Positions 34,893 to 63,990 of a stretch of 64,000 nucleotides of DNA are shown one piece after another. Made by a program: the position numbers and the translations under genes. The notes below the pieces were generated by a model. That model was not told the DNA's origin. It made no database searches and was given only the letters and a program-made list of their open reading frames with translations. Source of the stretch: Nitrospirota bacterium (GTDB taxonomy: Bacteria > Nitrospirota > JACRHJ01); contig CAVTDB010000025.1 in assembly GCA_963733375.1 (NCBI GenBank), positions 87,882 through 151,881 on the forward strand, read 5' to 3'. The stretch's first letter is position 1. Every line of letters starts with the position of its first letter.

Positions 34893-34931
34893 TTCTGTCT
34901 TCGCTACCGCTCTGGACAGGTAAATCTTTTC
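34893..34931 (-). mobile_element. 36-bp CGAA-associated mini-element abutting the tRNA-Leu 5' end
   Basis: Reverse complement reads GAA-AAGATTTACCTGTCCAGAGCGGTAGCGAAGACA-GAA. Confidence 0.75.
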
Positions 34932-35014
34932 GCGAGAGTGGCGGAACTGGCAGACGCGCCGGACTTAGGATCCGGTGGGCAACCATGGGGGTTCAAGTCC
35001 CCCCTCTCGCACCA
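34932..35014 (+). tRNA. tRNA-Leu(TAG)
   Basis: GCGAGAG/CTCTCGC acceptor stem, CCGGA-CTTAGGA-TCCGG anticodon arm, GGTTCAAGTCC T-loop, encoded CCA. Confidence 0.97.
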
Positions 35015-35042
35015 TCCGGGCGCGCTCAAAGGCTGTAAACCT

Positions 35043-35135
35043 GTTACCTTTTTGGAAAAAGGTAACGCCAAAAACTTTTAGACTAAAACCCCGCTTTCTT
35101 TTGTGTTACTTTTCTTTCTCCGAAAGAAAAGTAAC
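35043..35135. repeat. AT-rich double-hairpin element, copy 4 (inverted)
   Basis: Reverse-complement arrangement of copies 1-3. Confidence 0.9.
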
Positions 35136-35164
35136 GATTTTCCAAACAGGAGACGATAACAAAA

Positions 35165-36460
35165 ATGAAATTCGAAGTCGAAGACCTTGGAGCTACGAAG
35201 AAACGCCTGAAGGTGGAGATATCCGCGGACGATGTCGAAAAAGCCCTGAACAAGGCCTACGCGGAATTAAATAAATCCGTCAAGATAGAGGGCTTCCGTC
35301 CGGGACATGCGCCCAAGGGGATACTGGAAAAACGCTACGGGAAGGGCGTCGAGGCGGACATGCTGGAAAAACTGATACCGGCGCATTACTTCCAGGCGGC
35401 CCAGGAGGCGGGTATAATCCCGGTGGACAACCCCAAGTTCGACGAAGGGAATTTCGAGATAAAGAAAGGCCAGCCTATTTCTTTTGTGGCTGAGGTGGAG
35501 GTCCGTCCGGAAATCGCGCTCTCTGAATACAAGGAGATAGAGGTCCCGGAAGAGGAGCTTACCGTCTCGGAGGAAGAAGTTTCCGAGGCGTTGGAAGAGC
35601 TGCGCGACGTGAATTCCACGCTGGAAACGCTTGTCGAGGACCGTCCGTCGGTGGACGGCGATTACGCCGTGATAGATTTCGAAGGCTTCGTCGGCGGCGC
35701 CCCCATACAAGGGGGAAAGGCGGAAAACTACGCGCTTAACTTAGGCTCCGGGAGCTTCATCCCCGGTTTCGAAGAACAGATAACCGGGATGAAAAAAGGG
35801 GATGAACGGGAGATTAAAGTCACTTTCCCCGAAAATTACAAGAACAGGGAACTGGCCGGAAAGGAAGCGGCTTTCAAGATAAAGCTGAGCGAGATAAAGA
35901 AGAAGGTCCTGCCGGCGCTGGACGACGATTTCGCGAAGGATACCCGGATCGCCTCGACCCTTGAAGAAATGAAGGCGGCGGTGCGTGAAGATATACTGGC
36001 GCACAAGCGCCGGGGCTTAATCGAGAAGCAGAAGGACAAGGTAATGGAGGAGCTTGGGAAGCGTAACGACTTCGAGCTTCCGGCCTCTTTGGTGGACAGG
36101 GAGTTCAAGGCGCTTCAGGCGAGGCACAGGCGCGAACTGCTCTCCTCCGGCATGAAGGCCGAGGAGGCCGGGGAGGAGATGAAGCGCTTCGAGGAGGAGG
36201 CCAAAAAAGCGGCCGCCGACCGTGTGAAAGTGTCCCTGGTGCTTGCGACTATATCGGACAGGGAAGGGATAATAATTTCCGACGCCGAGCTTGAGGTGGG
36301 AATACACAGGCTTGCCGCCCAGACGGGACAAAGCGCCAAGGATTTGAAGGAGTTATATCTTAGGCGGGAGGGCGGCCTGGAGGCCCTGAGAGGCATGCTG
36401 GGCGAGGAAAAGGTGCTGGAATTCGTGCTTTCCCAGACAAAAAAGGTTAAAGCGGCCTAG
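35165..36460 (+). CDS. tig: Trigger factor
   Basis: GFRPGHAP, IDFEG, FIPGFEEQ; synteny with clpP/clpX. Confidence 0.97.
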   Translation: MKFEVEDLGATKKRLKVEISADDVEKALNKAYAELNKSVKIEGFRPGHAPKGILEKRYGKGVEADMLEKLIPAHYFQAAQEAGIIPVDNPKFDEGNFEIKKGQPISFVAEVEVRPEIALSEYKEIEVPEEELTVSEEEVSEALEELRDVNSTLETLVEDRPSVDGDYAVIDFEGFVGGAPIQGGKAENYALNLGSGSFIPGFEEQITGMKKGDEREIKVTFPENYKNRELAGKEAAFKIKLSEIKKKVLPALDDDFAKDTRIASTLEEMKAAVREDILAHKRRGLIEKQKDKVMEELGKRNDFELPASLVDREFKALQARHRRELLSSGMKAEEAGEEMKRFEEEAKKAAADRVKVSLVLATISDREGIIISDAELEVGIHRLAAQTGQSAKDLKELYLRREGGLEALRGMLGEEKVLEFVLSQTKKVKAA

Positions 36461-36586
36461 ACCGGGTCCCCTGAAATTCTTTTTTTAAGGTAAAATTAAG
36501 TTGTGGGCGTTGCTTTTCCGCCTGAAATAGATTAGAATACATAGGAATTGCTTAAAGTAAATTCCGCTGATTTCCTGGAGGACTTA

Positions 36587-37186
36587 ATGCTCATCCCTTA
36601 CGTCATAGAGCAGACCGCACGCGGCGAGAGGGCCTACGATATCTATTCGCGCCTGCTCAAGGACAGGATAATATTCCTGGGCACCGCAATAGACGACGAC
36701 GTGGCCAACGCAATAATCGCCCAGCTCCTGTTCCTCGAAGCGGACGACCCGGACAAGGAAATACATCTGTACGTCAATAGCCCCGGCGGCGTCGTGACTG
36801 CCGGGCTCGCGATATTCGACACCATGAACTACGTCCGGGCCCCGGTTTCCACGATCTGCCTGGGCCAGGCCGCCAGCATGGGAGCGCTGCTTCTGGCGGC
36901 GGGCGAGAAGGGGCGGCGGTTCTCGCTCCCGAATTCGAGGATCATGATACACCAGCCCTCGGCGGGGTTCCAGGGCCAGGCGACGGACATCGACATCCAC
37001 GCAAGAGAGATACTGAGGATGAAAGAGGCCTTGAACCAGATACTCGCCAAGGCCACCGGACAGAGCCTTGAAAAGATCGCGGATGATACGGACCGGGACT
37101 TCTTCATGAGCGGGATTCAGGCCAAGGATTACGGCCTGATAGACGCCGTCATCGAGAGGCTGCCGGATACGCCGGCAAAGTTATAA
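36587..37186 (+). CDS. clpP: Clp protease proteolytic subunit
   Basis: [29 protein letters not shown]. Confidence 0.98.
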
Positions 37187-37241
37187 CCCCCTTCGGGGGC
37201 AGCAGCACCCGCACTAAACGGCAGTAGGAGGTTCTTTACAA

Positions 37242-38498
37242 ATGGAGAAGAAAACCGAAAACGACAAGGCGGCGCACCACTGTTCTTTCTGCGGAAAGAG
37301 CCAGGACGAGGTCAAGAAGCTTATAGCGGGCCCGACCGTCTTCATTTGCGATGAGTGTATAGAGCTTTGCAACGACATTGTGGCGGAGGAATGGGACGAG
37401 GAGCGCGCCTCCGGAATGCCCAAACTCCCCAAGCCCGTGGAGATCAAGCGTTTCCTGGACGAGTACGTCATCGGCCAGGAGCGCGCCAAGAAGATACTCT
37501 CGGTCGCGGTCCACAACCACTACAAACGCATATCGACGCCTGTAACCGAACTGGACGACGTAGAGCTCCAGAAATCCAACATACTGCTTATCGGCCCCAC
37601 CGGCGTGGGCAAGACACTGCTCGCGCAGACCCTGGCCCGGATGCTGGATGTGCCTTTCACAATCGCGGACGCCACGACCTTGACCGAGGCCGGGTACGTC
37701 GGCGAGGACGTCGAGAACATAGTTTTAAAACTCCTCCAGGCGGCTGACTACGACGCCGAGCGCGCGCAGAGGGGCATCATCTATATCGACGAGATAGACA
37801 AGATATCGCGCAAGTCGGAGAACCCGTCCATCACCCGCGACGTATCCGGCGAAGGAGTACAGCAGGCGCTCCTGAAAATAATTGAAGGTACGGTCGCCTC
37901 AGTGCCCCCGCAAGGTGGTAGAAAACACCCGCACCAGGAGTTCATCCAGGTGGACACCTCCAACATCCTGTTCGTCTGCGGCGGCGCGTTCGTCGGCCTC
38001 GACAAGATAATAGAACACCGGGGCGGCGATAAAGTGATGGGCTTCGGCGCGGAAGTCCGCTCGAAAAAGGAGAAGGGAGTCGGCGAGGTCCTGGCCGCAG
38101 TCCAGCCCGAAGACCTTTTGAAGTTCGGCATGATACCGGAGTTCATAGGCAGGGTCCCCGTTCTCGCCACTTTAGTGGAGCTGGACGAGGAGGCTCTGGT
38201 CCGGATACTCACGGAGCCTAAGAACTCGCTCATCAAGCAGTACCAGAAGCTCCTGATGATGGAGGGCGTGAAGCTCAAGTTCACTGAAGGCGCGATGAAG
38301 GCCATAGCCAAGAAGGCCGTCACCCGCAAGACCGGCGCCCGCGGCCTTCGGGCGATACTGGAAGAGGTAATGCTCGACCTCATGTACGACGTGCCTTCCC
38401 AGCAGAACGTGAAGGAAGTCGTCATAAACGAAGAGGTAATCAACAGCCGCGAAGCCGCGATATTCCTCTACGAAAAAGAGGAAAAAGAGGCCTCCTAA
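37242..38498 (+). CDS. clpX: Clp protease ATPase subunit
   Basis: CSFCGK zinc finger, [22 protein letters not shown]. Confidence 0.98.
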
Positions 38499-38544
38499 AG
38501 GGGGCCGGATGGCCGGGCGGAGCGAGACCTGCTTAAAAGATAAT

Positions 38545-38572
38545 AAAAAGGCGGCCTGATGGCGCCTTTTTT
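38545..38572 (+). terminator. Intrinsic terminator after clpX
   Basis: AAAAAGGCG-GCCTGATGG-CGCCTTTTTT. Confidence 0.7.
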
Positions 38573-38689
38573 ATTTGGGCAACTGCTTGACGCCCAACCC
38601 GCCCCCTGCTAAACTCTATGCATATCAATCGGATAGTTACAGCAATTTTAGAATATGCCATAACGGCAAACAGATGCGAAGGGTAACCA

Positions 38690-39401
38690 TTGCGCATTAA
38701 ATTAAAGGCGCGCCGCGTTGAAACGAACGACGTGATGTCGTTCATTTTCGACTGGGCGGCCAACCGCTTGAATACAGCCCCGGGCAGTTCTTACATTATG
38801 AACTCGATACCCTCGCATTTCCCGATGAGCGCGGCAATCGCAGACATTTCACCATATCAAGCTCGCCCACCGAAGAAGGGATCGTGATGTTCACGACGAA
38901 AATCCGGGGCAGCGGTTTTAAGGAAACACTGCGGCAGGCGCCGATAGGATTTGAGCTCACCTGCGAATCTCCCGAGGGCGAATTTGTCTTGCGCGAGGGA
39001 GAAGCAAATAAGCGGCATGTCTTTATCGCCGGGGGAATAGGCGTAACGCCTTACCGTTCTATCTTGCGCTACAGGGCGGACACGCACGAGCCTCTTAGAC
39101 GCGCTCCTTTTGAACTTCAACCGTTCCTCAGCAGACATAGTGTTTCGCCGGGAACTGGAGGACATAGCGCGGCAGATGCCGACTTTTTCATTCGTTAACG
39201 TGCTCACGGAGCCGGAAGAAGGCTGGAAGGCCCGCGAGGGAAATTAGATGAAGCGGTACTTCGCGAGTGGACGCCTGACCCGCGATGGAGCGCTTTTCTG
39301 GGTGAGCGGCCCCCCGGGATGGTAGCGGGTGCAGGGAACTTCTCGGACAGATAGGCGTCGATAGCAAAAACATCCGCACCGAGAGATTCATGGGCTATTA
39401 A
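38690..39401 (+). pseudogene. FAD/NAD(P)-binding FNR-family oxidoreductase, multiply frameshifted (pseudogene or assembly error)
   Basis: FTISSSP, FIAGGIGVTPYRS and SGPPGMV fragments in different frames. Confidence 0.65.
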
Positions 39402-39422
39402 TTCAACCTGAAGGAGGACAGT

Positions 39423-39553
39423 ATGTGTTACACCTGTGGATGCGGCATGCCGGATAGATAGCATGGGCGATGCAAGGAATATCACCAATAAAACGTTCGA
39501 GGAAGGGCGCAATCCACGGACTGAGCACAAAAGAACCGTGCAAACCGATTTAG
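39423..39553 (+). CDS. Small Cys-rich protein (frameshifted; end uncertain)
   Basis: GGAGG RBS; MCYTCGCGMPD...MGDARNITNKTFEE. Confidence 0.5.
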
Positions 39554-39624
39554 GCCGTCGAGCCGGCCTTTTTATTCCCCCTTTTAATTTGACCTGAACC
39601 CCCTTTTAACTTAGAATATTTCCC

Positions 39625-42152
39625 ATGCCAGACATCGATAAGTACATCTCCCCCGAGGCGGCCCGGTACATGCGCCGCGCCATCGCCGAGGCTGGCGGAA
39701 ATGAGGTATTTTTCCTCTCGTCCTGCGGGGACGACCGCCGCGTATTCAAGGCCCAGGTAATCGCGCGCGGCGACGAGTCGTGCGTCCCGGCGCTTGCCCA
39801 GGGCGCGGCGGTGGGCGACGTGGTAATCCATAACCACCCCTCCGGCCTCCTCACCCCGTCCAAACCCGACATCGAGATAGCCGGGATGCTGGGCTCGCGC
39901 GGAGTCGGTTTCTTCATCGTAAATAACCCGGTGGACGAAGTATATGCCGTAGTCGAGCCATTCGCGCGCGAGTCGCTGAAACCAATCGACATAGACGCGG
40001 TGGAGGCGGCGCTCTCCGGGGGCGGGGCGTTATCCAAGGCAATGACCGGGCACGAGGCCAGGGCGGGCCAGGTGATGATGGCGCGTGAAGTCGCGCGTGC
40101 GTTCAACGAGGACAGGGTCGCGGCGCTGGAGGGCGGGACCGGCGTCGGCAAGAGCATGGCGTATCTTCGTCCCCGCGCTCCACTGGATAACAAAAAACCG
40201 GGAGCGGGTCGTGGTCTCCACCAACACGATAAACCTCCAGGAACAGCTAATAGGAAAGGACATCCCGCTCCTTGGCCGGACCGGGCTGGAGCCGTTCAAG
40301 GCGGTGCTGGTCAAGGGCCGGGGCAACTACCTCTGCCTGAGGAAGCTCGATATGGCCCTGGTTGATGGCGACTTCCTTCTGGAAGAGGTCGAGAAGGAGG
40401 ACCTCGAGGCGATATCCGAGTGGGCTCTCATGACCAAGGAAGGCTCCCGCTCCGACCTCTCCTTCATGCCGTCCGGGTCGCTATGGGAAAAACTGAATTC
40501 CGAGACGGATTCCTGCACAAGGCTCAAGTGCCGGCACTTCAGCCACTGCTTCTTCTTCCGCGCCAGGCGCGAGGCAGCAAGCGCGGACTTGCTGGTCGTA
40601 AACCACCATATCCTACTTGCCGACATCGCCATGCGCGCCGAGGGGGCTTCGGACACCGCAATACTGCCCGGCTACTCGCGGCTTATAATCGACGAGGGGC
40701 ATAACCTAGAGGACGGCGCGACGTCTTATTTCGGCGGCAGGATTACGAGGCTCGGCCTTTTGAAGACGCTCGGACGGCTGCACCACAAAAAAGACCGTGA
40801 GCGCGGCACGTTGCCGCTTATCGCGTCGCGGCTTGCGGTAAGGGGTAAGGCGGGCTCGCGCAAGGAGAAAGGCGAGGCCTGGAGGACGCTGATACGGGAC
40901 AGGATAGTCCTGGAGAAGGAGTCGGTGTCACTCAGGGTGAACGAGGCGTTCGACGAACTGTTCTACTTCATCTCCCGCGAGAGCGAAAGCCCCGGCGGCG
41001 AGGTCAAGATACGCCTCACGGACGAGATCGAGGCGCGTCACCGGCTGGGAGTCCGTCGAAGGCGGGTTCAGCCGCTTGGGGACGGAGTTGGCAAACCTCA
41101 CGCGCTCGCTGAATTCTCTTGTGCAAGGAGCTGAAGGACGAAAGCCTGGGAGACAAGATAGACGAGCCGTTAATCGAGCTTAAGTCCTTGAGCGAGAGGC
41201 TGGAGGCCGCGAACACGGAACTGGACAACCTGCTCCGGGGCAAAGACGACGGCCTCGTGCGCTGGGCGGAGGCCCCGGCCAGAAAGACCGGGCGGGTAAT
41301 CGCGCTGTGCGGCTCTCCGCTTAAACGTCGCGGCCGAGATAAAGTCCCGGATATACGACAGGCTTAAAACGGTAGTGATAACCTCCGCGACTCTTACGGT
41401 TAAGAAAAAATTCAACTTCTTAAACCGGCGCATCGGGCTTGATTTAATACCCGGCGACAGGGTCATCGAGGGGGTATACCCCTCTCCTTTCGACTATCGC
41501 AACCAGGTAATTATCTGCATCCCAAGAGACATCCCGGAGCCGGGCGCGAAGGAGTTTGCGCGCGGCGCTTTCCGCTTTGGTCCGGGAGTCGCTGGACATT
41601 TCGCGCGGCCGGGCGTTCGTGCTGTTCACGTCTTTCCGGATGCTGGAGGGCGCGTACCGGGAGCTGGAGCCGTTCATGCTTGCCGCCGGGATAAAAGGGC
41701 TTAAGCAGGGAGACGCCCCCCGCCACAGGCTGCTGGAAGACTTCCGTACGCACCCCTCCGCCGCGCTCTTCGGCACGGACAGCTTCTGGGAGGGAGTGGA
41801 CGTAACCGGGGAGGCGCTCTCAAATGTTATAATTACAAAGCTCCCGTTCTCCGTCCCGGACGAGCCCGTGATACAGGCGAGGCAGGAAGAGATAGAGGCG
41901 CGGGGCGGCAACCCGTTCATGGAGTACATCGTGCCGCAGGCGGTGATAAAGTTCCGCCAGGGCTTCGGGCGGCTCATCCGGAGCAATACGGACCGGGGCT
42001 CCATCATGGTGTTCGACCGGCGCATCGTCGAGAAGAACTACGGGCGCGAGTTCCTGGAATCGCTCCCGGAGGGGCGTCTTGTCGCCGGGCCGTCGGCGGT
42101 GGTGTTCGAGAAGGCGCGCGAGTTTTTCGGCGTGCCGGTGGAAAGAGTATAA
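39625..42152 (+). CDS. DinG/YoaA-family helicase with N-terminal JAB/MPN-like domain (frameshifted)
   Basis: GGNEVF...IHNHPSG.L.PS..D; GTGVGKS; KGRGNYLC; IIDEGH; SFWEGVD; QGFGRLIR. Confidence 0.9.
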
Positions 42153-42156
42153 ACCT

Positions 42157-42244
42157 GTTACCTTTTTGTAAAAAGGTAACACCAAAAACTTTTAAACTTG
42201 TTTTCATGTCCGGCTTTCTTTTGGTTACTTTTCTTTCACCCGAA
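42157..42244. repeat. AT-rich double-hairpin element, copy 5 (inverted; second hairpin interrupted)
   Basis: GTTACCTTTTTGTAAAAAGGTAAC...GTTACTTTTCTTTCACCCGAA, then mini-element sequence. Confidence 0.85.
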
Positions 42245-42270
42245 ATGATTTACCTGTCAGAGCGAAGACA
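42242..42270 (+). mobile_element. Internally deleted copy of the 36-bp mini-element
   Basis: GAAATGATTTACCTGTCAGAGCGAAGACA. Confidence 0.7.
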
Positions 42271-42283
42271 TGACGGAGTAGCT

Positions 42284-42883
42284 ATGAACTCACTCGACCT
42301 TACCCTGCTTCTTATTATCGGCGTATCGCTCGCGGTCAGCACCTTCCGGGGGGCGGTACGCGAAATCTTCTCGCTCGGCGGCGTCATAGCCGGGTTCATC
42401 CTCGCGTCCCGGTTCTATGAAAAAACATCCGTGGGCGTGCTGCGGCTTACCTCATACCCGGAGATAAACAACATAATCAGCTTCCTGCTAATCTTCATCT
42501 TCGCCTCCGTCCTGATAAGCTTCATCGGCGGCATGTTCTCCCATGCCGTGAACAAATCGGGCTTCAAGGTATTAAATACGTTCTTGGGGACGTTCATCGG
42601 CGCGGTAAAAGGGGTGCTGATCGCCTCCCTCGTCCTGTACGCCCTGCTGGTCTTCTTCCCGGCTAACAGCAGCATGTTCCAGCACTCGAAGACTTTCCCG
42701 TATGCCGTCAAGTTCTCGAAAGCCATATCACCCATCGGCCCGGCGTTTTTCCGCGAGGAGTTAGACAAAAAACTGAACGAGACCAAGGGCCAACAAAAGA
42801 CCGTGCAGCCCCCCTCACCCCCCTCACCCCCCAAGGCCCCCCACCCCCAGCCACCCAAGAACCATACAAAAAAGAAAATTTAA
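42284..42883 (+). CDS. cvpA: CvpA-family membrane protein
   Basis: MNSLD...RGAVREIFSL...LG..IG.VKG. Confidence 0.88.
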   Translation: MNSLDLTLLLIIGVSLAVSTFRGAVREIFSLGGVIAGFILASRFYEKTSVGVLRLTSYPEINNIISFLLIFIFASVLISFIGGMFSHAVNKSGFKVLNTFLGTFIGAVKGVLIASLVLYALLVFFPANSSMFQHSKTFPYAVKFSKAISPIGPAFFREELDKKLNETKGQQKTVQPPSPPSPPKAPHPQPPKNHTKKKI

Positions 42884-42969
42884 TTGCGCCAACTCACCCC
42901 TTTGTGGTATATAAAGATTCCGGCAAGCGTTGAAAAAATGGGTGTAATAAAGGGCAAAGGAGGGGTGTT

Positions 42970-43218: not shown

Positions 43219-43266
43219 AACAAGTAAAACCTTCCCGATAGCCGGTTTTCTGGTATTATTAAAGTT

Positions 43267-43779: not shown

Positions 43780-43814
43780 TATCTACCCGTCGCCATACCC
43801 GTGTTCATGCAATC

Positions 43815-43847: not shown

Positions 43848-43883
43848 AATGTCTTAGCCTGCCAGCCCCCCCCGTGCCCCTTT

Positions 43884-53717: not shown

Positions 53718-54083
53718 CTACATTTCCTGGAGATCCATGTTGCCCCTGTTTTCTACTACCCTCCACATCCTTACGACATGGTCGATCCCATCCGGACTGC
53801 GTTTAACGGCCACCTGTATTTTGTCGCCGGGCGCTAATCTGGAGAGTTGTTCACGCGGGGCTTTCAGGCTTATCATGCCGCCCGCGTCTTTCCGGAGCAA
53901 AAGCGCGCCTGCCCTCATATCGATGCTCCTTACGTGCCCCGAGAATTGCACTCGCCTGCCTTCTTCGAGCCTATGCTCCTTGCGCGGGGTCGTAATCGGC
54001 CCATACTCATCGGCTTGAGCGAAAACCGCCCCGGTAACGAGAACTACCGCAAGGGACGCCACCATTAAAATAAGCCTTTTCAT
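53718..54083 (-). CDS. Exported hypothetical protein (possible OB-fold)
   Basis: GGAGAGG RBS, signal peptide ending VFA, G.V..ID...L.PGDKI.V pattern. Confidence 0.7.
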   Translation of the reverse strand: MKRLILMVASLAVVLVTGAVFAQADEYGPITTPRKEHRLEEGRRVQFSGHVRSIDMRAGALLLRKDAGGMISLKAPREQLSRLAPGDKIQVAVKRSPDGIDHVVRMWRVVENRGNMDLQEM

Positions 54084-54249
54084 CTGTAACCCCTCCTCCG
54101 CTTACCCGCAAAAAATCAAACTTCTCGTTTATTTGGAATAGCTTCCACTATTATATTTTACCTCAACCGGGCTATTTTCGCTTTGGCGGGACAAGGGTCA
54201 AATGAACAAGAGATAGGCCGCCAAAACTGGCGGCCTATCTCTTTAAATT

Positions 54250-54392
54250 CCTGGATTCCCGCCTTCTGTCTTCGCTGTCGCTCTGGACAGGTAAAACATT
54301 TCGCGGGAATGACGGCGGAAACAAAAAGGGCCGACACGATGGTCGGCCCATTAATTTTAAAGTCCTGGATTCCCGCCTGCGCGGGAATGACG
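54250..54392. repeat. Two GGATTCCCGC-n-GCGGGAATGAC REP-like palindromes; the first is interrupted by the mini-element
   Basis: Intact copy at 54364-54392 versus split copy at 54250-54313. Confidence 0.85.
54264..54302 (-). mobile_element. 36-bp mini-element in a REP loop
   Basis: Reverse complement reads GAA-ATGTTTTACCTGTCCAGAGCGACAGCGAAGACA-GAA. Confidence 0.8.
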
Positions 54393-54487
54393 GCATGTGG
54401 CGCGCCGTGGGCGTCGCGCCCATATGGCCGCCTACTCGTTTACTTTCGCCGGCGTCCTATTCTGCGGCCCCCTGCCCCCCTGGCCCC

Positions 54488-55733
54488 CTACTTGTTCATC
54501 GACATGATAAAGTCCTGGTTGGTCTTGGTCGCGCGCAGCTTCTCGATTAAGAACTCCATCTGCTCCACCGTCGAGAGCGGGTTTAAGACCTTGCGCAGGA
54601 CCCACATCTTGTTCAGGGTGTTCGCATCCACCAGGAGCTCTTCTTTACGGGTGCCGGAGCCGTTTATGTCGATGGCCGGGAAGACGCGCTTCTCGACCAG
54701 CTTGCGGTCAAGGTGAAGCTCCATATTACCCGTTCCCTTGAACTCCTCGAATATGACGTCGTCCATCCTGGAGCCGGTATCGATAAGGGCCGTGGCCATG
54801 ATCGTCAGGCTCCCGCCTTCCTCGATATTCCTGGCCGCGCCGAAGAAGCGCTTCGGCCTCTGGAGCGCGTTTGCGTCTATGCCGCCAGAGAGGACCTTGC
54901 CGCTTGGCGGGACGATGGTGTTGTATGCTCTGGCAAGACGGGTAATGGAGTCCAGAAGAATCACCACGTCCTTTTTATGCTCGACCAGGCGCTTGGCCTT
55001 CTCTATGACCATCTCGGCCACCTGGACATGCCTTTGCGGCGGCTCGTCGAAGGTCGAGGATATGACCTCGGCCTTTACCTGCCGGACCATGTCGGTCACT
55101 TCTTCGGGCCGCTCGTCTATCAGAAGGACGATGAGGATTATCTCCGGGTGGTTTTTCGTGATGGCCTTTGCGATGGACTGGAGGATCATGGTCTTGCCGG
55201 TGCGGGGCTGGGCCACGATCATGCCGCGCTGGCCCTTGCCTATCGGGGTGACCAGGTCCATGACCCGCGTGTTCATGTCGCCCGCCACCTCCAGGTTTAT
55301 CTTCTCTTCGGGGTAGAGCGGGGTCAGGTTGTCGAAAAGTATCTTGTCCCTTATCTCCTCGGGCGACTCGAAGTTCACGGTCTCCACCTTCAGCAGGGCG
55401 AAGTAGCGCTCGCCCTCCTTCGGGGGGCGTATCTGCCCGGCGACCGTATCGCCGGTGCGGAGGTTGAACCGCCTTATCTGGGACGGGGAGACGTATATGT
55501 CGTCCGGCCCCGGGAGGTAGTTGTAGTCCGGCGCGCGCAGGAAACCGAAGCCGTCCGGCAGGGTCTCCAGCACCCCGGCCCCGTAAATCTGGCCGTTTTT
55601 CTCGGTCTGGGCCTGGAGTATCGCGAATATCAGCTCCTGTTTTCTGAGGCCGCTTGCGTTTTCGAGTTTTAAGTCCTTGGCGATGGTGGTTAAGCTCGCC
55701 AATGCTTTTTTCCTTCAGTTCTACGATGTTCAT
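54488..55733 (-). CDS. rho: Transcription termination factor Rho (frameshift near the 5' end)
   Basis: [42 protein letters not shown]. Confidence 0.98.
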
Positions 55734-56122
55734 CGATGCTCCTTGCTCTTTCATGCGGTTTTTTCCTAAGGAATGGATAAGGGCTTCCGAGAGGCTTGAT
55801 TTATTTATAAGGGGCTTATCCTGGGAATATTTGAATTATTCGCGGCTGCGCCAAAAGACATGACGGCCATAGGGGTTTGTTTTTTATTTAATCCGGCACC
55901 AATTTTAAATCGCATTGCTGGATGATTGAGGGGTATGGGAGTTTTCGAAAACCTTGCGGGGGTACCTTCACGGGTACGACCTTGTGCAAAGGATACAACA
56001 TTTCTTTAGCTTTTGTCAATATTAATTTTACTTAAACGGCTGTCAACTTCCTTGACTTTGATTTTATTCTAAATTAGAATCTAAAATTGCGGTATGGTTT
56101 TTCCGCAAAAAAGGTATTTCCG

Positions 56123-57399
56123 ATGCATCAGAATGAAAAAATCAAATACGGATTGGTCGGCGTAGTCATAGGCGCGGCTCCCGCCTCTTCCATGTATTAC
56201 TCCAATATCTGCTTTTCTATCGGAACCTCCCCGCAGGCCAATACGTCCGGGAACACATCCTCGACTCCGGCCCCGGCATGGCTACCAACCTGTATATCGC
56301 CGGCGCCGTATTCGTAATGGGCGGCGCGGGGGTGCTGGTCGGGAAGCTCCGGGAAAAGGACGCGCGGCTCCAAAGAGAGGTAGAGCAGAGAAATATCGAG
56401 TACAAGAGGAGCCAGGAGGAACTGAAAAGCCTTTCCTTCAACCTGGAGAGCAAGGTCAAGGAGGGCCAGGACGAGCTGCTGGAGTACGCACAGAAACTGA
56501 ACGAAGCGAACGCGAAACTGCTCATGCAGGTAGAGATACAGAGAAAAATCGCGGGCAACGTCCCGTCGCTTCTGGCCCTCGTGGATAAGGACATGAACTA
56601 CGTGGAGATGAACGAGTTCGGCGCCCGTAATTTCATAGACAGGCCGATGGGCGAGATACTGGGCCAGAAGTGCTACGCGGTGATGGGCGGGAAGGACGAC
56701 GTCTGCCACGAGGACTGCGCGGTGCAAAAGGCATTCATAAGCGGCAGGGAAGAGTCCCACTCCCGCACGGGTTTGCTGCTGGGGAGGACGGTCACCACGG
56801 AGAACAAGAGCATCCCCATAAGGAACGAGGAAGGGATGGTCACCCATGTCCTCAAGATCGTAACGGATACCACCGCGAAGAAGAAGGAAGAGGACGAGCT
56901 GAAGCGCCGGGCGAACGTGGACGCCCTGACGGGGGTTTACAACAAGCACTACCTGGACCTCTACCTCCAGAACGAGCAGGTCAAAAACAAGACCGACAAG
57001 AGAAGGCGCGGTCCCTATACGATTATATACGCGGACCTGGACGACCTGAAGAAAGCCAACGACAGCTACGGGCATGAGGCGGGGGACATACTGCTGAAGA
57101 AGGCCGCCCGGATTTTCCAGGATAATACCAGGCACGAGGACATAATCGCGAGGGTGGGCGGCGACGAGTTCGTTATAGTGCTCCCGCACAGCGGGCTGGA
57201 AGAGGGCGAGGTATTGATTAACCGCTTCCGCCATCAGAGCGAGCAGTGGTCAAGGACCAGGGACTTGGAGGAAGGCCTGTCGGGTTTAAAGCTCTCCGTC
57301 TCATACGGCCTTGGCGCCTCGGCTTACGGGACCGACCTCTACGATACGATCAGGAATGCCGACCTTACGATGTACAGAGCCAAAAAGGACAAAAAGTAA
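56123..57399 (+). CDS. Membrane-bound PAS/GGDEF diguanylate cyclase (frameshift near the 5' end)
   Basis: DALTG, ND.YGH..GD, RHEDIIARVGGDEF (RxxD I-site). Confidence 0.92.
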
Positions 57400-57410
57400 C
57401 CGGCGTTAAG

Positions 57411-58009
57411 TCAAGAATTCTTCCTTTCCATCTCCCTTACTATTGCCTCGAGCATGGCCTGCCTCCCTCCTCCGGCGACCCTCTTTATCCGGAGCGCCTC
57501 CTTAAGCAATGTCAGGGCCTCGGGGCCGCCGCCGTCCCGGAGCGCCGTCGCCGCCTCGAACGCCACCGATTCGTCCTCCGAGAGCAGGTAAGGAGAAATG
57601 GCCTCCACCGCCCCTTCCGTCCTGAAGCGCCCTATCGCCTGGACAAGGCCCGGCAGGCTTTTCCTCGGGATGTCCGGGATGAGCCCTATCAGAAGGTCCA
57701 GGTCTTCAGGTTCGCCCGCATCGGAAAGTATCTCCGCGGCCGCATTCCATAAGGGATTGCGAAGGCTCCGACGTTATCTCCCGAAACGGCTCCGGCCGCC
57801 TCAAGGCCACGGAAATAAGGGCCTCCTGAAGGACCGCCTCCCTCTCTTCCAGGTCCATCTTCGCAAGCTGGTCCTTAAGCGAGAGCAGGGGCGTAACCGG
57901 GATATCCTTCCAGTGGCTTATTATTTCAGACGCAGTACCTGGAAAGTTCCGACTGCTCGCCGGTCCTTATCCCTTCAAGGATTTCCCCAAGGTCCATCCG
58001 TGGGCTCAT
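57411..58009 (-). CDS. HEAT-repeat protein (frameshifted)
   Basis: LSEDESVAFEAATALRD-type helical repeats. Confidence 0.55.
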
Positions 58010-58010
58010 G

Positions 58011-58364
58011 TCAGCCCAGCACCCGCTTTATCGTATCCTTCAGGTCTTTCAAGTCCCCGGACTTTACGACATAGGCCTCGGACGCCCAGACCCCGAAGTT
58101 ATGCTTGTACTCCGGATACGCCGTCACCATTATCATCGGCAGGTCGCGCTTTTTTTCCTTCAGCACACGGAGCACCTCGATACCGTCCATGCCGGGCATC
58201 CTGATATCCAGCGTCACGAGGTCCGGCTGGACCTCGTCCACCAGGCGTATCGCCTCGGGGCCGTCAGCCGCCAGGATAACGTCATAGCCCTCCTCGGTCA
58301 GCTCTTCCTTGAAAAGCTGGCGGACGTGCTCCTCGTCGTCCACGACAAGTATTTTTTTGGCCAT
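58011..58364 (-). CDS. Single-domain response regulator
   Basis: ILVVDDE, PDLVTLDIRMPGMDG. Confidence 0.95.
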   Translation of the reverse strand: MAKKILVVDDEEHVRQLFKEELTEEGYDVILAADGPEAIRLVDEVQPDLVTLDIRMPGMDGIEVLRVLKEKKRDLPMIMVTAYPEYKHNFGVWASEAYVVKSGDLKDLKDTIKRVLG

Positions 58365-58366
58365 GA

Positions 58367-60790
58367 TTATTCCCCCTTTTTAGCTTCCACCGGCGCGGGA
58401 ATCTCCCGGCAGGGAAGTTTGATATAAACCGTTATTCCCGCCCCTTCCCTGTTATCCAGTTCCAGTTCTCCGCCGTGGTTTTTGATTATTTTGCTGGTTA
58501 TTGCAAGTCCCAGTCCCGTACCGGTCACTTTCGTGGTAAAGAACGGGTTGAAGATATTGTCCAGGATGTCGGCCTGTATCCCCCCGCCGGAATCGGTGAT
58601 GGCGAGGACGGCGCGGACCGGTTCTTTTTCCATGTAGGTGCGGAAGGTCATCTCTTTTATGCCGGTCTTCTCCATCGCCTGCATGGAGTTGGAGACGATG
58701 TTTATAATCGCCTGCTTTACCTGCTGATGGTCCATCAGTACCAGGCAGGGCTGGGGTAAGAGGTCCACCCGGCGCGTTATGCCCTTCTCGCGGAACTCGT
58801 CTTCATAGAACTGGAGCGTCTCGTTGACTAACTGGTTTAAGTCGTACGGCTGGAAGTTGGGCTTCATCTCCCTGGAGAAATCCAGCACCTCGCCCAGTAT
58901 CTTCTCCAGCCTCCTGGCCTCGTCCCTGATTATGCGGGCGTAGCGGGATTCCTCGCCCTCGCCCTGCTTCTTGACCAACCGCGTCGCAAACCCCCCGATT
59001 ACCGTCAGCGGGTTCTTTATCTCGTGCGCTATGGAGGCCGCCATCTCGCCCAGCGCCGCCATCTTCTCGGACTGGATAAGCCTGTGCTGGGCCTCTTTCA
59101 GTTCTCGGTTTGCGTGCTCAAGGTTGGAATACGCGATGGCGGACTCAACCGCCAGTCCGGCCTGGTTCGCGAACATCATCAGTATCCGGAGGTCCTCGTC
59201 GCGGATGGCCCTTCCGGTAAACTTGTTGTCCACGATGACGACCGAGAGCACCTTGTCCTTGGCCACCAGCGGCACCACCGCGAACTCCCTCGCGCCCACC
59301 ATCCCGTATATCTCGGGCCCGGCCATCGTGTCGGTTTCCGCGTCCGCCAGAGATATCGCCCGCTTCTCCCGTATCGCGGCCGCGAATACCGTCCGGTCGT
59401 CCTCGAAGGAAAAACGCAGGCTCTTCACTGAGCGGTTGAACGAGGATTCCCTCTGCGAGGCGACCTCCCTGTCCGAGATGCTCCAGTCGCGGAAGTTCAC
59501 AGGCCTGTTCCCCAGCCGGGACCATATCTCGCCCGCCTCCCATGAAGAAGACGGCCCCACGCCCAGCATCCCCTGCAGGGTCTTTGTCCTGTCGTTTACC
59601 AGGAACAGCATTGCCCGGTTGAACCCCATCCCGCCGCCCATCGTGATGGCGGTGAGTATGATATGCAGGAGCTTCTCCAGGCGAAGCGTGGTGCGCATCG
59701 CGTTTGCTATGTCGTACAGGAAGGACAGCTCACGCGCGCGCTTCTCGTTTAAAAGGGCAAGCTCCTCGGCCCGCTCGTAAATGAACGCGTTTTCCACCGC
59801 CATGGAGGCCTGGGAAGCAAGCGTGGACAAAAGGTGCAGGTCCACCTCGGTAAAAGGCTGCTCGCCAAGCCTCGCGGGGTCTTCCTTGTCGTAGAGCGCG
59901 ATGGTGCCTATGACGTTGTCCTTGGCGATGAGCGGGACGCAGATAAGGGAGCGTGCGACCGCGCCGGTGACGTTCAAGAACTCCGGGCTCTCGAAGGCGT
60001 CCGACACGAGTATGGGCTTGCCGTCCTCGGCCACCTTTCCGGCGATGCTCTCGCCCAGCTTCAAATCCGTCCGGCGGCCCTGCTCCATCGGGAGCCCGAA
60101 CGACGCCTTTATCTCGAGCAGGTTCGTATCCGTGTTTATGAGCCTCAGTATGCAGCCCCTGGCCCCGATGACCTCGGCGCTTGAGCGGGCTATCCTGTCA
60201 AGCAGGGTCTGGAGGTCCAGCGTGGAGATTAGCGCGCGGGACATCTCGTATAGTGCGGAGAGCGCTTCCAGGTTCTGCTTCGCGTCCTGGTATAGCTGTG
60301 CGGTATTGATTATGCCGCCCACGTCGTTCGCTATCGTGGACAGGAGCGTGACCTCGTCGGGGGAGTAGGCATGCGGCTCAAGGGTCTGGACGGTCATGGC
60401 GCCTATGCAGTTATCGTCGAAGATGATGGGGACGGAGAGCATGGACTTGTATTTTTCCTCCCCCGTCTGCGGCACCAGCTTGTACCTCGGGTCCAGGCTT
60501 GCGAGTTCCAGCGCCGCGGCCTGCTTTTGCTGCACCACCCACCCCGATACGCCTTCGCCCATACGGAGCATGACCCGGTCTATGGAATCCGGGTTCAGGC
60601 CCACCGCCGCCTTCAACACCAGGACGTCCCTGTCCTTGTCCCGGAGCACTATATAGCAGACGTCGCGGGAGAGCTTCTCCGCGATCACGCGAACTATCTT
60701 GTCGAGCTTTACTCCAAAATCCTGGGTGGAATTGGCGATCTTCGATACTTCGGAAAGTATCTCCAGCTCCACCTTCTCCGATATAATCAT
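58367..60790 (-). CDS. Cytoplasmic triple-GAF histidine kinase
   Basis: Three GAF-like repeats, AHEIKNPL, GTGLGL; no TM helices. Confidence 0.95.
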   Translation of the reverse strand: MIISEKVELEILSEVSKIANSTQDFGVKLDKIVRVIAEKLSRDVCYIVLRDKDRDVLVLKAAVGLNPDSIDRVMLRMGEGVSGWVVQQKQAAALELASLDPRYKLVPQTGEEKYKSMLSVPIIFDDNCIGAMTVQTLEPHAYSPDEVTLLSTIANDVGGIINTAQLYQDAKQNLEALSALYEMSRALISTLDLQTLLDRIARSSAEVIGARGCILRLINTDTNLLEIKASFGLPMEQGRRTDLKLGESIAGKVAEDGKPILVSDAFESPEFLNVTGAVARSLICVPLIAKDNVIGTIALYDKEDPARLGEQPFTEVDLHLLSTLASQASMAVENAFIYERAEELALLNEKRARELSFLYDIANAMRTTLRLEKLLHIILTAITMGGGMGFNRAMLFLVNDRTKTLQGMLGVGPSSSWEAGEIWSRLGNRPVNFRDWSISDREVASQRESSFNRSVKSLRFSFEDDRTVFAAAIREKRAISLADAETDTMAGPEIYGMVGAREFAVVPLVAKDKVLSVVIVDNKFTGRAIRDEDLRILMMFANQAGLAVESAIAYSNLEHANRELKEAQHRLIQSEKMAALGEMAASIAHEIKNPLTVIGGFATRLVKKQGEGEESRYARIIRDEARRLEKILGEVLDFSREMKPNFQPYDLNQLVNETLQFYEDEFREKGITRRVDLLPQPCLVLMDHQQVKQAIINIVSNSMQAMEKTGIKEMTFRTYMEKEPVRAVLAITDSGGGIQADILDNIFNPFFTTKVTGTGLGLAITSKIIKNHGGELELDNREGAGITVYIKLPCREIPAPVEAKKGE

Positions 60791-60802
60791 CTAAAACCCT
60801 TT

Positions 60803-60912
60803 GTTACTTTTCTTTCAGGTGAAAGAAAAGTAACCAAAAGAAAGCCGGACATAAAGCTTTTAAATTGTCCCATTTTCTTTGTGTTACTTTCTTTTTTGCA
60901 AAAGAAAGTAAC
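60803..60912. repeat. AT-rich double-hairpin element, copy 6 (variant second hairpin)
   Basis: GTTACTTTTCTTTC-aggt-GAAAGAAAAGTAAC ... GTTACTTTCTTTT-n-AAAAGAAAGTAAC. Confidence 0.85.
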
Positions 60913-60923
60913 TGTTTTTGAAT

Positions 60924-62396
60924 TTACGCCGCCCTCTTTTGCCTCTCTTTCGCCTTGGCTTCGGCCTTCTTGTAGAGCTTGACGTACTCCTTCGCGGAGT
61001 TGTCCCAGGAGTTGTCTTCCTTCATACCCGACGTAACCAGCGACTTCCAGCCGTTTTTATCATCAAAGGCCGAAAGCGCCGCCTTTACGGACTTCAGGAA
61101 CGCTTTCGAACTATAATCGGTAAAAACAAAGCCGTTCCCCTTGCCCGTTTTCGGGTTGTAGTTGCTTACCGTATCCGCGAGGCCCCCGGTCTTTCTGACC
61201 AGCGGCACGGTCCCGTACCTGAGGGAAATCAGCTGGCCCAGGCCGCACGGCTCGTAGCGGGACGGCATCATGAACACGTCCGATGCCGCGTATATCCTGG
61301 CCGCGAGCGTCGCATCGAAAGCCAGGTTCACCGATATGCTCTTCGGGTGCTTTTTAGCCACGCCCGTTAATAGTTTGTGGTACTTCTCCTCGCCGGTGCC
61401 CAGCACCACCACCTGCAGGTCCATCTTCATCATCTCGTCGATTGCGCCGGCGATCAGGTCAAGACCCTTCTGGTCCGCGAGCCTCGAGATGATACCGAAG
61501 AGCGGCTTGTTCCCGGCCGCCAGGTGGAGTTGCTCCTTAAGACCCTTCTTGTTCGCCTGCTTTCCCTTGATGTCGCCCGCGCCGTAGTTCTTGACCAGGT
61601 GTTTATCCGTCTCGGGGTCCCATTCCTCGTAGTCTATACCGTTCACGATGCCGTAGAGGTCCGCGGCCCTTTTCTTGAGGACGCCTTCCAGCCCGTACCC
61701 GAACTCGGGGGTCTGTATCTCTTTGCTGTATGTCTTTGATACCGTATTAATTATATCGGAATAGACAAGGCCACCTTTTAGAATATTTATATCGCCGAAG
61801 AATTCTAATCCTTCCGGCGTAAAATACTCCCAACCCAGGCCTGTAAGGTGCCAGTCGGACGCCCAGAACTTCCCCTGGTATCCAATGTTATGCACGGTGA
61901 AGACCGTCCCGGTGTTCTTGAAGAATGGGTCGTTTGCATATAACGTCTTCAAGTATAGCGGCAGAAGACCCGTCTGCCAGTCGTTCGCATGTATGACGTC
62001 CGGGCGGAAGTCCATAGCCTTCAGGACCTCAGGTATTATCTTCGAGAAATATATGAACCGCTCCGCGTTGTCCGGGAGGTCTCCCTTGGCAGTGCCGTAG
62101 AGCACGTCCCGGTCGTAATATTTAGGGGTATCCACGAAGAACGCGCGCACCCCGCCGGGAAGCCCACCCTCCCAGATGGCCGCCTCGACGGCTTTACCGT
62201 CCATTATCGCCGCAGCCTTCTTCGCGGTTTTTTTAAGTCCCCATTTCGCCCGGTCCACCGCCTTGTAGAGCGGCATGACGACGCAGGTCTCCAGTTTAAG
62301 CTTCGCCAGCGCCTTCGGCAGCGCCCCCGCCACGTCGGCCAGGCCCCCTGTTTTCGCGAACGGATAAATTTCGGACGATGCGATTGCTATTTTCAT
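60924..62396 (-). CDS. glgA: Glycogen synthase
   Basis: KTGGLADV, HANDWQT, PSRYEPCGL. Confidence 0.97.
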   Translation of the reverse strand: MKIAIASSEIYPFAKTGGLADVAGALPKALAKLKLETCVVMPLYKAVDRAKWGLKKTAKKAAAIMDGKAVEAAIWEGGLPGGVRAFFVDTPKYYDRDVLYGTAKGDLPDNAERFIYFSKIIPEVLKAMDFRPDVIHANDWQTGLLPLYLKTLYANDPFFKNTGTVFTVHNIGYQGKFWASDWHLTGLGWEYFTPEGLEFFGDINILKGGLVYSDIINTVSKTYSKEIQTPEFGYGLEGVLKKRAADLYGIVNGIDYEEWDPETDKHLVKNYGAGDIKGKQANKKGLKEQLHLAAGNKPLFGIISRLADQKGLDLIAGAIDEMMKMDLQVVVLGTGEEKYHKLLTGVAKKHPKSISVNLAFDATLAARIYAASDVFMMPSRYEPCGLGQLISLRYGTVPLVRKTGGLADTVSNYNPKTGKGNGFVFTDYSSKAFLKSVKAALSAFDDKNGWKSLVTSGMKEDNSWDNSAKEYVKLYKKAEAKAKERQKRAA

Positions 62397-62582
62397 GGAA
62401 CCCTCTCTAAAATTTAATTTATGATCAGGGGAAAGAATCTTCTCTCCGAAAGTGGGAGGGGGAGTATTCTCTCCGAAAAATTATTATTCACAATAACGCT
62501 CAATCGGCTGCATCTCTATTTTACGTTCAAGATAATTTTTCTACGAGAACACTCCCCCTCCTTGCCGCCTGATTTCTCTTTT

Positions 62583-62740
62583 CGTCATTCCCGCGGAGGC
62601 GGGAATCCAGGAACTTAAACCCTGGATCCCCGACTAAAACTTTCGGGGATGACGAATTATTAAATATTGTCGTCATTCCCGCGATATGAACTATCTGTCC
62701 AGAGCGGGCGAAAACAGAAACGATTTACCTGTCTAAGAGC
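62583..62740. repeat. Cluster of GTCAT(T/C)CCCG REP-like palindromes with nested degenerate mini-elements
   Basis: CGTCATTCCCGCGGAGGCGGGAATCCAGG; GGATCCCCGA..TCGGGGATGACG; mini-element copies at 62683-62740. Confidence 0.8.
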
Positions 62741-62768
62741 GCTCCTTCAAGTGACGCCGCCCCGCCAA

Positions 62769-63757
62769 CTATATTTTCGCCTCGCGCAGGAACTTGGCCG
62801 CCTCTTCGGGGGCGGTGGGGTTGATGTAGAACCCGGAGCCCCACTCGAAACCCGCCACCTTGGTGAGCTTCGGCATTATCTCTATGTGCCAGTGGTAATA
62901 GTCGTTGTCCGGCTCCCTGAAGGGCGAGGTATGGACGATGTAGTTGTACGGCGGCAGTTCAGTATCTTGTCTATCCGCCGGAGCGTGCCTTGCAGCATCT
63001 CGGCCAGGGAAGCGAACTCGTGCGACTTCGCGTTTTCAAAACACGAGTCGTGGTTTTTGGGCATTATCCAGGTTCGAACGGGAAACGCGGAGTAAAAGGC
63101 TCCAGCGCCACGAAGTCCCTGTTTTCGCTGACTATCCTTGTGCCGGAGTTCAGTTCCTGCCGGATGATGTCGCAGAAGATGCAGCGCTCCTTGACTGGTA
63201 GTACTGTTTGCCCCGTCGATCTCCTCCTGCACCTGTATCGGCACGATCGGAAGCGCGATGAGCTGGGAATGCGAGTGCTCAAGCGACGCGCCGGCCGCAT
63301 CCCTTCGTTTTTGAATATAAGGGCATACTGGAACCGGGGGTCCTTTTTCAGGTCCTCCATGCGGTCCCGGTAGGCCCAGAGCACTTCTCCACCGCCTTCA
63401 GCGGCAGGGTGGACATTGTCGCGTCGTGCAGGGGCTTTCGATGATCACTTCGTGGGCGCCGATGCCGTTCATCTTGTCGAAGATGCCCTCGCCCTGCTTG
63501 TTCAGGTCGCCCTCGATCTGGAGCGCGGGGAACTTGTTCGGCACCGCCCTGAGCGGCCAGCCCGGCCTGTTGGGCGCCGTCCCGTTCTCGCGGTAGGCCA
63601 GGACCTCCTTCGGGGTCGTGCGCTCGTTGCCCAGGTCGAACGGGCAGAACCCCCCTTTTTTGCGGGGGTGGTCCTGGAAGTCCGTAGGCCGCTTGCCCCT
63701 CTCCGACGATATGATGACCCACCTGCCGATGATGGGGTCTTTTCTGAGTTCTGGCAT
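62769..63757 (-). CDS. galT: GalT-family nucleotidyltransferase (frameshifted)
   Basis: [47 protein letters not shown]. Confidence 0.9.
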
Positions 63758-63837
63758 ATTCCCTCCTGACGGTATAAAATTATCTTTTTGATTATAACAT
63801 AAGTTTGTTTAAGCGGTTGAAAAACGTTAAAAAAAAC

Positions 63838-63868
63838 AAAGAGGGGCTTTTAAAAAGCCCCTCTTTTT
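63838..63868. terminator. Terminator-like hairpin
   Basis: AAAGAGGGGCTTTT-AAAAAGCCCCTCTTTTT. Confidence 0.7.
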
Positions 63869-63902
63869 GCTAACCGGCAATATTTAATGGCCCGTCATCC
63901 CC

Positions 63903-63990
63903 GAAACGGTTTACCTGTCCAGAGCGAAAGCGAAGACAGATAGCGAAGACAGAAATGATTTACCTGTCCAGAGCGATAGCGAAGACAGAA
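63903..63990 (+). mobile_element. Tandem 36-bp mini-elements inside a REP
   Basis: CGTCATCCCC-GAA[unit + 13-bp partial]GAA[unit]GAA-TGCTTTAGTC; compare the empty REP at 62621-62654. Confidence 0.8.

Follow-up and report, generated by a model that had tools for sequence, protein, structure and literature searches.

A putative 36-nt gene-less insertion element enriched at hairpin tips in an uncultured genus of Nitrospirota

Very small gene-less repeats that resemble insertion elements have reportedly been found in one cyanobacterial family, in a 2008 study by Elhai and colleagues in which these small dispersed repeats (SDRs) are said to measure 21-27 nt and to be nested, in some cases, in their own copies, and in which an RNA route of movement was reportedly proposed. 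In passages of four papers that cite this study, SDR1-8 of Nostoc punctiforme and its relatives appear as gene-less dispersed repeats far below the size of miniature inverted-repeat transposable elements (MITEs), which occur in one coherent taxon and inside other repeats and are mobile as judged by comparison of related genomes, the mover being given as not known (PMC5861425; PMC3116915; PMC2884548; PMC3733652). Here we describe a 36-nt unit from a 64,000-nt stretch of a Nitrospirota genome (positions 87,882 to 151,881 of contig CAVTDB010000025.1; hereafter the window) that, judged by these descriptions rather than by SDR sequences, is closest in kind to the Nostocaceae SDRs. Like them it is gene-less, shorter than 50 nt and present in many copies in a narrow taxon, and it is present or absent at orthologous sites and nested in itself and in other repeats. 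It differs from them in belonging to another phylum, in its length of 36 nt, in its junctions at G|AA (the bar marks the point of insertion) without target duplication and in having insertions polarized by an outgroup; the RNA route is without support for the unit, as no reverse transcriptase and no transcription-strand bias were found.

The 36 nt of the unit are far below the sizes of palindrome-associated transposable elements (PATEs) and of REPIN doublets. With the "peel-and-paste" elements of the IS200/IS605 family, with PATEs, which are gene-less derivatives of that family, and with the repetitive extragenic palindrome (REP)/RAYT systems (REPINs; PMC3116915), the unit shares several traits: it inserts on the 3′ side of a short word, duplicates no target, has no terminal inverted repeats, is linked to hairpins and probably consists of non-autonomous copies moved in trans. 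It differs from them in that the three unit-bearing genomes are without Y1/RAYT genes and in that the unit forms a single weak hairpin; no strand bias showed relative to GC skew, which is only a proxy here. By analogy, the unit would work most like the single-strand, duplication-free, word-directed insertion of the IS200/IS605 kind, while it does not qualify as a member of that family. MITEs are described as 70-300 bp long with terminal inverted repeats of 15-30 bp (PMC3733652). The unit resembles them in its small size, its lack of coding capacity, its dispersal and its presence/absence differences among relatives, whereas it has neither terminal inverted repeats nor a target duplication and is half of their minimum size; the description fits better one of the hosts of the unit, an AT-rich hairpin element designated H. 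Rickettsia palindromic elements are in-frame selfish repeats in genes, ~100-150 bp long and strongly palindromic; the unit resembles them in surviving in frame in the loops or linkers of protein-coding genes, and differs in being 36 nt long and in that most of its copies are intergenic. A CRISPR repeat was rejected, because the copies are solitary, abutting or nested and are never separated by unique spacers. A search of a limited literature collection turned up neither a Nitrospirota element of this sort nor a mechanism by which SDR-type repeats move.

To judge from the comparison of sequences, we are dealing with a genuine insertion element that carries no gene, has defined junctions and was active recently. 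Our full reading, which we consider likely, is that this 36-nt element inserts exactly at G|AA without duplication, favors hairpins and is moved in trans. The unit would thus bring SDR-like behavior to another phylum together with testable features, namely resolved G|AA junctions, outgroup polarity, nested and tandem states at orthologous sites and in-frame insertions of 12 codons; units also appear to remodel other repeats (hairpins of the NTS/SRM type, described below) and to add short peptides to proteins.

Sequence and distribution of the unit

The core of the unit, TTTACCTGTCCAGAGCG, has five matches in the window (at most 3 mismatches), against 0.09 expected, and five were reached in none of 100 shuffles. 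Its anatomy was derived from 91 parsed copies (from the genome of the window and from fetched loci), which give the consensus, 5′ to 3′, A(A/G)A N G N - YTTACCTGTCCAGAGCG - NN - AGCGAAGACAG, that is, a 6-nt linker (mostly A, A/G, A, N, G, N, with G or T at position 3 in some copies), a 17-nt block, two free bases (one in some copies) and an 11-nt block. Both blocks are near-invariant over the ~90 copies, and the linker and the two free bases are variable. Most copies are 36 nt long, in agreement with the original prediction that the length is a multiple of 3; there are also copies of 35 nt (one loop base fewer) and a 33-nt variant. The unit encodes nothing. All unit coordinates given here refer to the 36 nt that are seen as inserted in filled/empty pairs.

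In the predicted fold, CTGTC pairs with GACAG and GC pairs with GC, leaving the free bases in an apical G-N-N-A loop. As had been predicted, the pairing is internal, and the ends of the unit (AAATGA.. and ..GACAG) form no long terminal inverted repeats. As DNA the stem-loop of 5 bp (+2 bp) is weak (-3.3 kcal/mol, with z values of -2.05 and -1.12 in two copies), and as RNA it reaches -8.7 kcal/mol (z -3.1; equalled by 0 of 200 shuffles). Since the stem is invariant, covariation support is absent; inspection by eye of pairing between linker positions 4 and 6, and of covariation between the linker and the flanks, gave no convincing pattern. An Rfam scan returned only the tRNA-Leu of the window at gathering score, and the unit had no meaningful match up to E = 10.

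The genome of the window (G000; 2.39 Mb in 26 contigs, 81% complete) holds 38 core copies (at most 2 mismatches; 0 with a reversed control pattern), and 30 and 15 were found in two genomes of the same genus, G001 and G002, respectively. Among the other 38 relatives, single matches with 1-2 mismatches were obtained in nine, at control level; four of these were read, and a true unit was present only in G009. This genome, which belongs to another genus of the same family, carries one copy, one T short, in an NTS/REP loop on an 11-kb contig (L060/L120); old ancestry, transfer or mis-binning could each be responsible. An exact pattern over both conserved blocks was found in 31 stretches among 185,579 species genomes, all of them in records titled Nitrospirota or Nitrospirae metagenome-assembled genome (MAG), and also in 16 short metagenome contigs; two unit patterns had no match in viral contigs. 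The unit is best regarded as an insertion element without genes that belongs to a single uncultured genus of Nitrospirota.

Filled and empty sites at hairpins and in unique sequence

Three sets of sequences were aligned to G000, namely all G001 and G002 copies with ~1.2 kb of flank to the left and right, 20-kb blocks of G002 in synteny and the loci on metagenome contigs; the resulting pairs compare assemblies of different species or of strains that are not identified. Empty alleles, the check that the original prediction had proposed, were found in the assemblies of relatives. At three loci in unique sequence (L033, L036 and L039), G001 is filled and G000 is empty, the difference being 36 nt each. 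Two copies of G000, at C9:12856 (35 nt, with one loop base) and at C9:31274, have empty counterparts in both G001 and G002, and because G001 is the more distant by flank identity, these two are insertions in the lineage of G000. The size difference at C9:31274 is 35 nt against G002, where the site lies next to a run of A, and 39 nt against G001.

In coding sequence, the 12 extra codons are kept in frame. The unit at C9:31274 lies in a gene for a protein of 570 residues, where it adds RITCPERQRRQK to the linker that separates the NFACT_N domain from NFACT-R_1; the counterpart in G002 (L101/L110) of this NFACT-family gene (G000 C9:29975-31687) lies in two frames at the unit site, and this split reflects either an assembly error or a real frameshift. 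At a lipoprotein signal-peptide site, G002 is without the unit (MRNNKLLTVLVILAALSLSAC), G000 has one unit and a partial left part, and G001 has two nested in-frame units (72 nt), its copy being that of G000 with 36 nt added inside the apical loop. At G000 C10:41029 the unit adds 12 codons past the start codon of a membrane protein. Further copies lie within long open frames at L002, L035 and L039, and all three forward frames are represented. The insertion at C9:12856 (L107) has its end 2 nt short of the start codon (ATG) of a gene for a XerD-like tyrosine recombinase, whose upstream region it therefore replaces.

For pairs with clean flanks, every register in which the filled site equals the empty site plus a block was listed. 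Pairs in hairpins and nested pairs, with GA to the left and right of the block, are compatible with three registers. The GAA duplication that had been predicted did not survive this analysis: C9:12856 (empty site TATT|AATGG) and L033 (left flank ending in C) rule out the register with a GA or GAA duplication. This leaves insertion of a 36-nt block, A..G, between G and AA, resolved to within 1 nt and without duplication of the target. Among 39 merged canonical sites, 33 have G at position -1, all 39 have A at +1 and 36 have A at +2; at the 15 sites in unique sequence, -1 is G in 13 and -2 is T in five, A in four, G in three and C in three. From these counts the target word is G|AA rather than the CGAA first proposed, and the C comes from the C-rich loops of the hairpin hosts; it does precede the first unit (as CG) at every locus of the window, as had been claimed, and is not required genome-wide. 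A different word, GAAGAC within the unit, which we take to be a type IIS recognition word with its top-strand cut presumably at the right junction, was rejected as an explanation because it is missing from the targets.

The target word recurs in the unit itself. Because A(A/G)A forms its start and G its last base, insertion recreates G|A(A/G)A at either junction, and the apical loop, GCG|ANAGC, repeats the word. Tandem copies are joined at this word and nested copies lie in the loop, so that its presence in these places explains both in a simple way. When copies are written as left (L) and right (R) parts, the array types are LR (71), LRLR (7), LLRR (4), LRR (3), LRRLR (1), LRL (1) and LLR (0). 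One orthologous site reads L-L-R-R in metagenome contig L074 and L-R-R in G000 (C3:219955), so that L-R-R, which is also the state of window positions 63904-63952, is best read as a nested pair minus one left part, lost between direct repeats. Two units stand against one at G000 C10:67538 and C10:67906 (compared with G002 and contigs L081 and L072), between L011 and G000 C9:96475 and between L080 and G000 C16:28431; the flanks of L081 are 100% and 97% identical to G000, and the tandem change is therefore recent. These exact pairs, between species and on metagenome contigs, agree with the original proposal of a very small mobile unit that favors hairpins and re-inserts beside and, as seen here, inside itself.

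The unit is enriched at the tips of hairpins of three kinds, which are the loops of NTS-like REPs, the boundary between the loop and the 3′ arm of the H element, and its own loop. In Chenal et al. (2025; PMC11893778), NTS/SRM hairpins have the consensus CGTCATTCCCGCGMAVGCGGGAATCYRG and are tied to Ssn single-strand nucleases. The host REP matches this consensus, at every position in the case of the minus strand of window positions 54364-54393, and is occupied by the unit where its loop reads GAAG; the unit itself does not match CGTCATTCCCGCGMAVGCGGGAATCYRG. According to that source, the target of Ssn is single-stranded DNA, which it cleaves slightly upstream of the NTS, by a few bases, and it has no joining activity (PMC11893778). 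The cut of Ssn is outside the NTS loop, in which the unit sits. Small GIY-YIG genes (PF01541) were found in none of G000, G001 and G002, each of which has one match in a large open reading frame (395-635 aa), presumed to be UvrC, and several sister genera have small GIY-YIG genes of 95-132 residues; the ~20 NTS-like REP copies of G000 are perhaps orphans in decay.

Empty H hairpins (CTTTTCTTTC, a C-rich loop of 2-6 nt, GAAAGAAAAG) number 104 in G000. Filled ones number 37 over all sequences, 35 of them in one orientation, and the unit always lies at the loop/3′-arm boundary, ..G|AAAG. Thirteen filled/empty pairs concern H loops, with flanks 97-98% identical in the case of L073, another recent event. 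A block of ~170 nt comprising H and the unit is present in G000 and absent from G002 at C3:211391, C3:219955 and C26:385292, and H would, on this sequence comparison, be a MITE-like element that is itself mobile. Nearly all H-borne units are of one subtype (linker AGATGA, loop bases AT); two H copies of opposite orientation have other linkers (L017, AAATGA; C11:15941, AAAAGA) and look like separate insertions. In the window, an AT-rich composite at about 35028-35080 and 42150-42242 consists of a hairpin GTTACCTTTTTGnAAAAAGGTAAC, a spacer and a hairpin made up of CTTTTCTTTC, loop and GAAAGAAAAG.

Candidate movers and alternative explanations

As the unit encodes nothing, it would have to be moved in trans, and a transposase, recombinase or nuclease gene bordered by or co-distributed with it had been suggested. 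No candidate emerged among the families searched in G000, G001 and G002, a search limited by the 81% completeness of G000 and by the frequent loss of mobile genes from MAGs. In 87 regions around core matches (one mismatch allowed), the 1.5 kb next to the unit contain no recurrent gene family, the recurrent open reading frames being read-throughs of repeats or ordinary orthologs, and the unit is therefore not the end of an IS, an origin that, as the original prediction had stated, would have refuted its proposal. Tyrosine recombinases (PF00589) give 5-9 matches per genome in all five genomes searched and, being equal in carriers and non-carriers, are uninformative. The resolvase family (PF00239) occurs, among the three, only in G000. 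Weak rve matches (PF00665) correspond to paralogs of a Mu-type transposase (Mu-transpos_C, rve, HTH), which were rejected as the mover because they are not bordered by units in G000. These paralogs lie at C3:161181-163181, C20:18993-20207, C1:97657-98580 and C3:195671-198004, within or close to an island of contig C3 that is rich in repeats and includes a resolvase gene; the two longer copies are ~91% identical, and weak rve matches are also present in G001 and G002. The mover does not appear to belong to any transposase family searched.

Several observations weigh against insertion by a dedicated mover. Y1_Tnp/RAYT (PF01797), present in 27 of the 41 genomes searched (G000 included), was found in none of the three unit-bearing genomes, and the same holds for RVT_1 reverse transcriptase (PF00078), DDE_Tnp_1 (PF01609), IS110 (PF01548), TnpB (PF07282) and small GIY-YIG proteins as candidate movers. 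The unit has one weak hairpin, not two, and shows no strand bias like that known for Y1 elements, 14 of 32 arrays having it on the G-rich strand, although GC skew is only a proxy where the contigs come from MAGs. Neither read-level polymorphism nor a circle junction was seen, and the Logan contigs of relatives (shares of at most 0.16) contained no 36-nt joint and no circle junction. Some pairs are irregular: C8:52909 differs by 29 nt instead of 36, L078 carries a permuted two-unit block of 72 nt, and at C10:41029 G002 keeps a remnant, GACTTACC|TATTC, which matches the product expected from a 30-nt deletion between two ACCT words. Such events look like slippage or template switching on units and are a minority beside the exact pairs. 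Finally, the loop bases differ between the filled and empty states in 8 of the 11 H pairs read, a change that gene conversion fits better than simple insertion, and much of the H-borne spread is probably secondary, through movement of the composite and gene conversion.

The last observation leads to an explanation without any dedicated mobility, in which the unit is a fixed part of composite repeats and is spread by their movement, by gene conversion and, in tandems, by slippage. The H-plus-unit composites present or absent as a whole at three sites between G000 and G002, the single subtype of the H-borne copies, the frequent change of loop bases along with the unit and the rare variants common to tandem copies (L011; the C10 arrays) are in its favor, but it leaves unexplained the exact 35- or 36-nt insertions in unique sequence without flanking homology (C9:12856, C9:31274, L033, L036, L039 and the lipoprotein site), the nested copy that arose within a resident unit, the varied linkers of REP-borne and unique-site copies and the other linkers of the opposite-orientation H copies L017 and C11:15941, and we consider it unlikely. 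Template switching by a polymerase stalled at hairpins, with the nascent ..G end jumping to a unit and returning at AA, would make use of the same 3-nt microhomology (G, AA) at both junctions, of targets that are hairpin tips, and of the absence of a transposase among the families searched, and it would yield irregular products such as the 29-nt difference, the permuted 72-nt block and the ACCT-mediated deletion. Homology of 1-3 nt should, however, give variable end points, whereas identical 36-nt boundaries are found in more than 20 independent pairs and ~90 parsed copies, which makes this process improbable as the general source of the copies.

Copying through RNA, by transcription, folding of the stem-loop, reverse transcription and insertion, is hardly more credible than template switching. 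It agrees with the better fold of the unit as RNA than as DNA and with the position of the variable bases, which lie in the 5′ linker, left unpaired, and in the apical NN loop of the predicted fold, but a reverse transcriptase domain is present in none of the three genomes, the invariant stem offers no covariation, and the orientation of the unit relative to flanking genes is unbiased (seven copies run with co-directional neighbors and nine against; 16 of 32 arrays have the unit on the strand of most genes). Very improbable, in our view, is a host cis-element, either a protein-binding site or an RNA hairpin, that is kept by selection and whose mobility is incidental or past. The near-invariance of the 17-nt and 11-nt blocks beside a variable linker and loop, and the identity of the copy next to tRNA-Leu in all three species, would be expected of such an element; against it stand copies in both gene orientations, in three coding frames and inside other repeats, copies that decay without replacement (window 42243 and 62684), the lack of an Rfam match and the absence of a promoter- or terminator-like site at the tRNA copy.

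For the preferred reading, insertion of the unit at G|AA by an activity supplied in trans, the most likely reaction would cut and join one strand at a G|AA word that folded single-stranded DNA leaves accessible; the donor would be either a tandem junction or a single-stranded circle of 36 nt. Insertion at its own junction word would then produce a tandem, and insertion in its own loop a nested L-L-R-R array, which could later drop one left part to become L-R-R; gene conversion between H copies would transfer or remove the unit. Only tentatively do we suggest that the mover is either an enzyme of a kind new to transposition or a housekeeping enzyme of single-stranded DNA, which would cut and rejoin at G|AA with a circle or tandem as the donor. 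If this is true, the unit would be among the smallest bacterial insertion elements with exactly defined junctions and would offer a tractable entry to the movement of SDR-type mini-repeats, as the three genomes are small and transposase-poor and have recent polymorphic sites.

Copies in the window

The unit was read at each of the five loci that the original prediction had named in the window (Table 1). The copy beside tRNA-Leu adjoins the gene as claimed and is not flush with it: one base (34931) lies between them, whose complement is the G of the G|AA insertion site. A scan for promoters and terminators at this copy found no such site. The second copy does break the AT-rich hairpin; it is decayed, as an internal piece resembling ATAGCG and the 3′ end of the copy are missing together with the 3′ arm of H, and G002 has an intact empty H hairpin at this site. 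The third lies, as stated, in a REP loop, between arms at about 54252-54265 and 54302-54316, and its removal leaves the predicted empty loop CGAAGG, of which there is one other copy in G000.

The remaining two loci are tandem arrays, degenerate in one case, as had been described. The first unit of the degenerate array follows a REP 5′ half (62671-62683), and that of the other follows the 5′ half of a REP variant (63891-63903), for which the proposed empty counterpart was confirmed. The 3′ part of the loop of this REP variant (AATGCTTTAGTC) follows the last unit at the end of the window.

Table 1. Units and host repeats at the five loci of the window (positions are those of the window)
Feature	Position	Strand	Remarks
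Complete 36-nt unit	34895..34930	-	Linker AAAAGA, loop bases GT; same copy in G001 and G002
tRNA-Leu (anticodon TAG)	34932..35014	+	
AT-rich H hairpin, 5′ part	42212..42242	+	GCTTTCTTTTGGTTACTTTTCTTTC + loop ACCC + G; host of the next unit
Decayed 28-nt unit	42243..42270	+	Pair C25:130130 vs L094
Complete 36-nt unit in NTS-like REP loop	54266..54301	-	Linker AAATGT, loop bases AC
Neighboring empty NTS-like REP	54364..54393	-	Minus strand reads CGTCATTCCCGCGCAGGCGGGAATCCAGG
Empty NTS-like REP	62583..62611	+	CGTCATTCCCGCGGAGGCGGGAATCCAGG
Empty long-loop REP variant	62620..62655	-	CGTCATCCCCGAAAGTTTTAGTCGGGGATCCAGG; unfilled counterpart of the host at 63891
Degenerate 34-nt unit	62684..62717	+	Behind REP 5′ half
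Truncated second unit, tandem	62718..62741	+	AAACGA TTTACCTGTC..AAGAGCG
36-nt unit	63904..63939	+	Linker AAACGG, loop bases AA; behind REP-variant 5′ half
Extra 13-nt right part	63940..63952	+	ATAGCGAAGACAG
36-nt tandem unit	63953..63988	+	Linker AAATGA, loop bases AT

Contig C25, and with it the window, stops 12 nt past the array 63904-63988, within the REP variant that hosts it; the assembly therefore lacks either the true array or the flank beyond it. The cluster of REPs and degenerate units at 62395-62770 (376 nt) is missing from G002, and contigs of relatives in two public runs also skip it, joining 62394 to 62771. The intervals 54006-55339 and 62010-62676 showed very high contig depth in four runs from soil, peat and wetland; the bins of high depth hold NTS-like REPs and one neighboring gene, which suggests that these REP-bearing sequences are common to many organisms in those samples.

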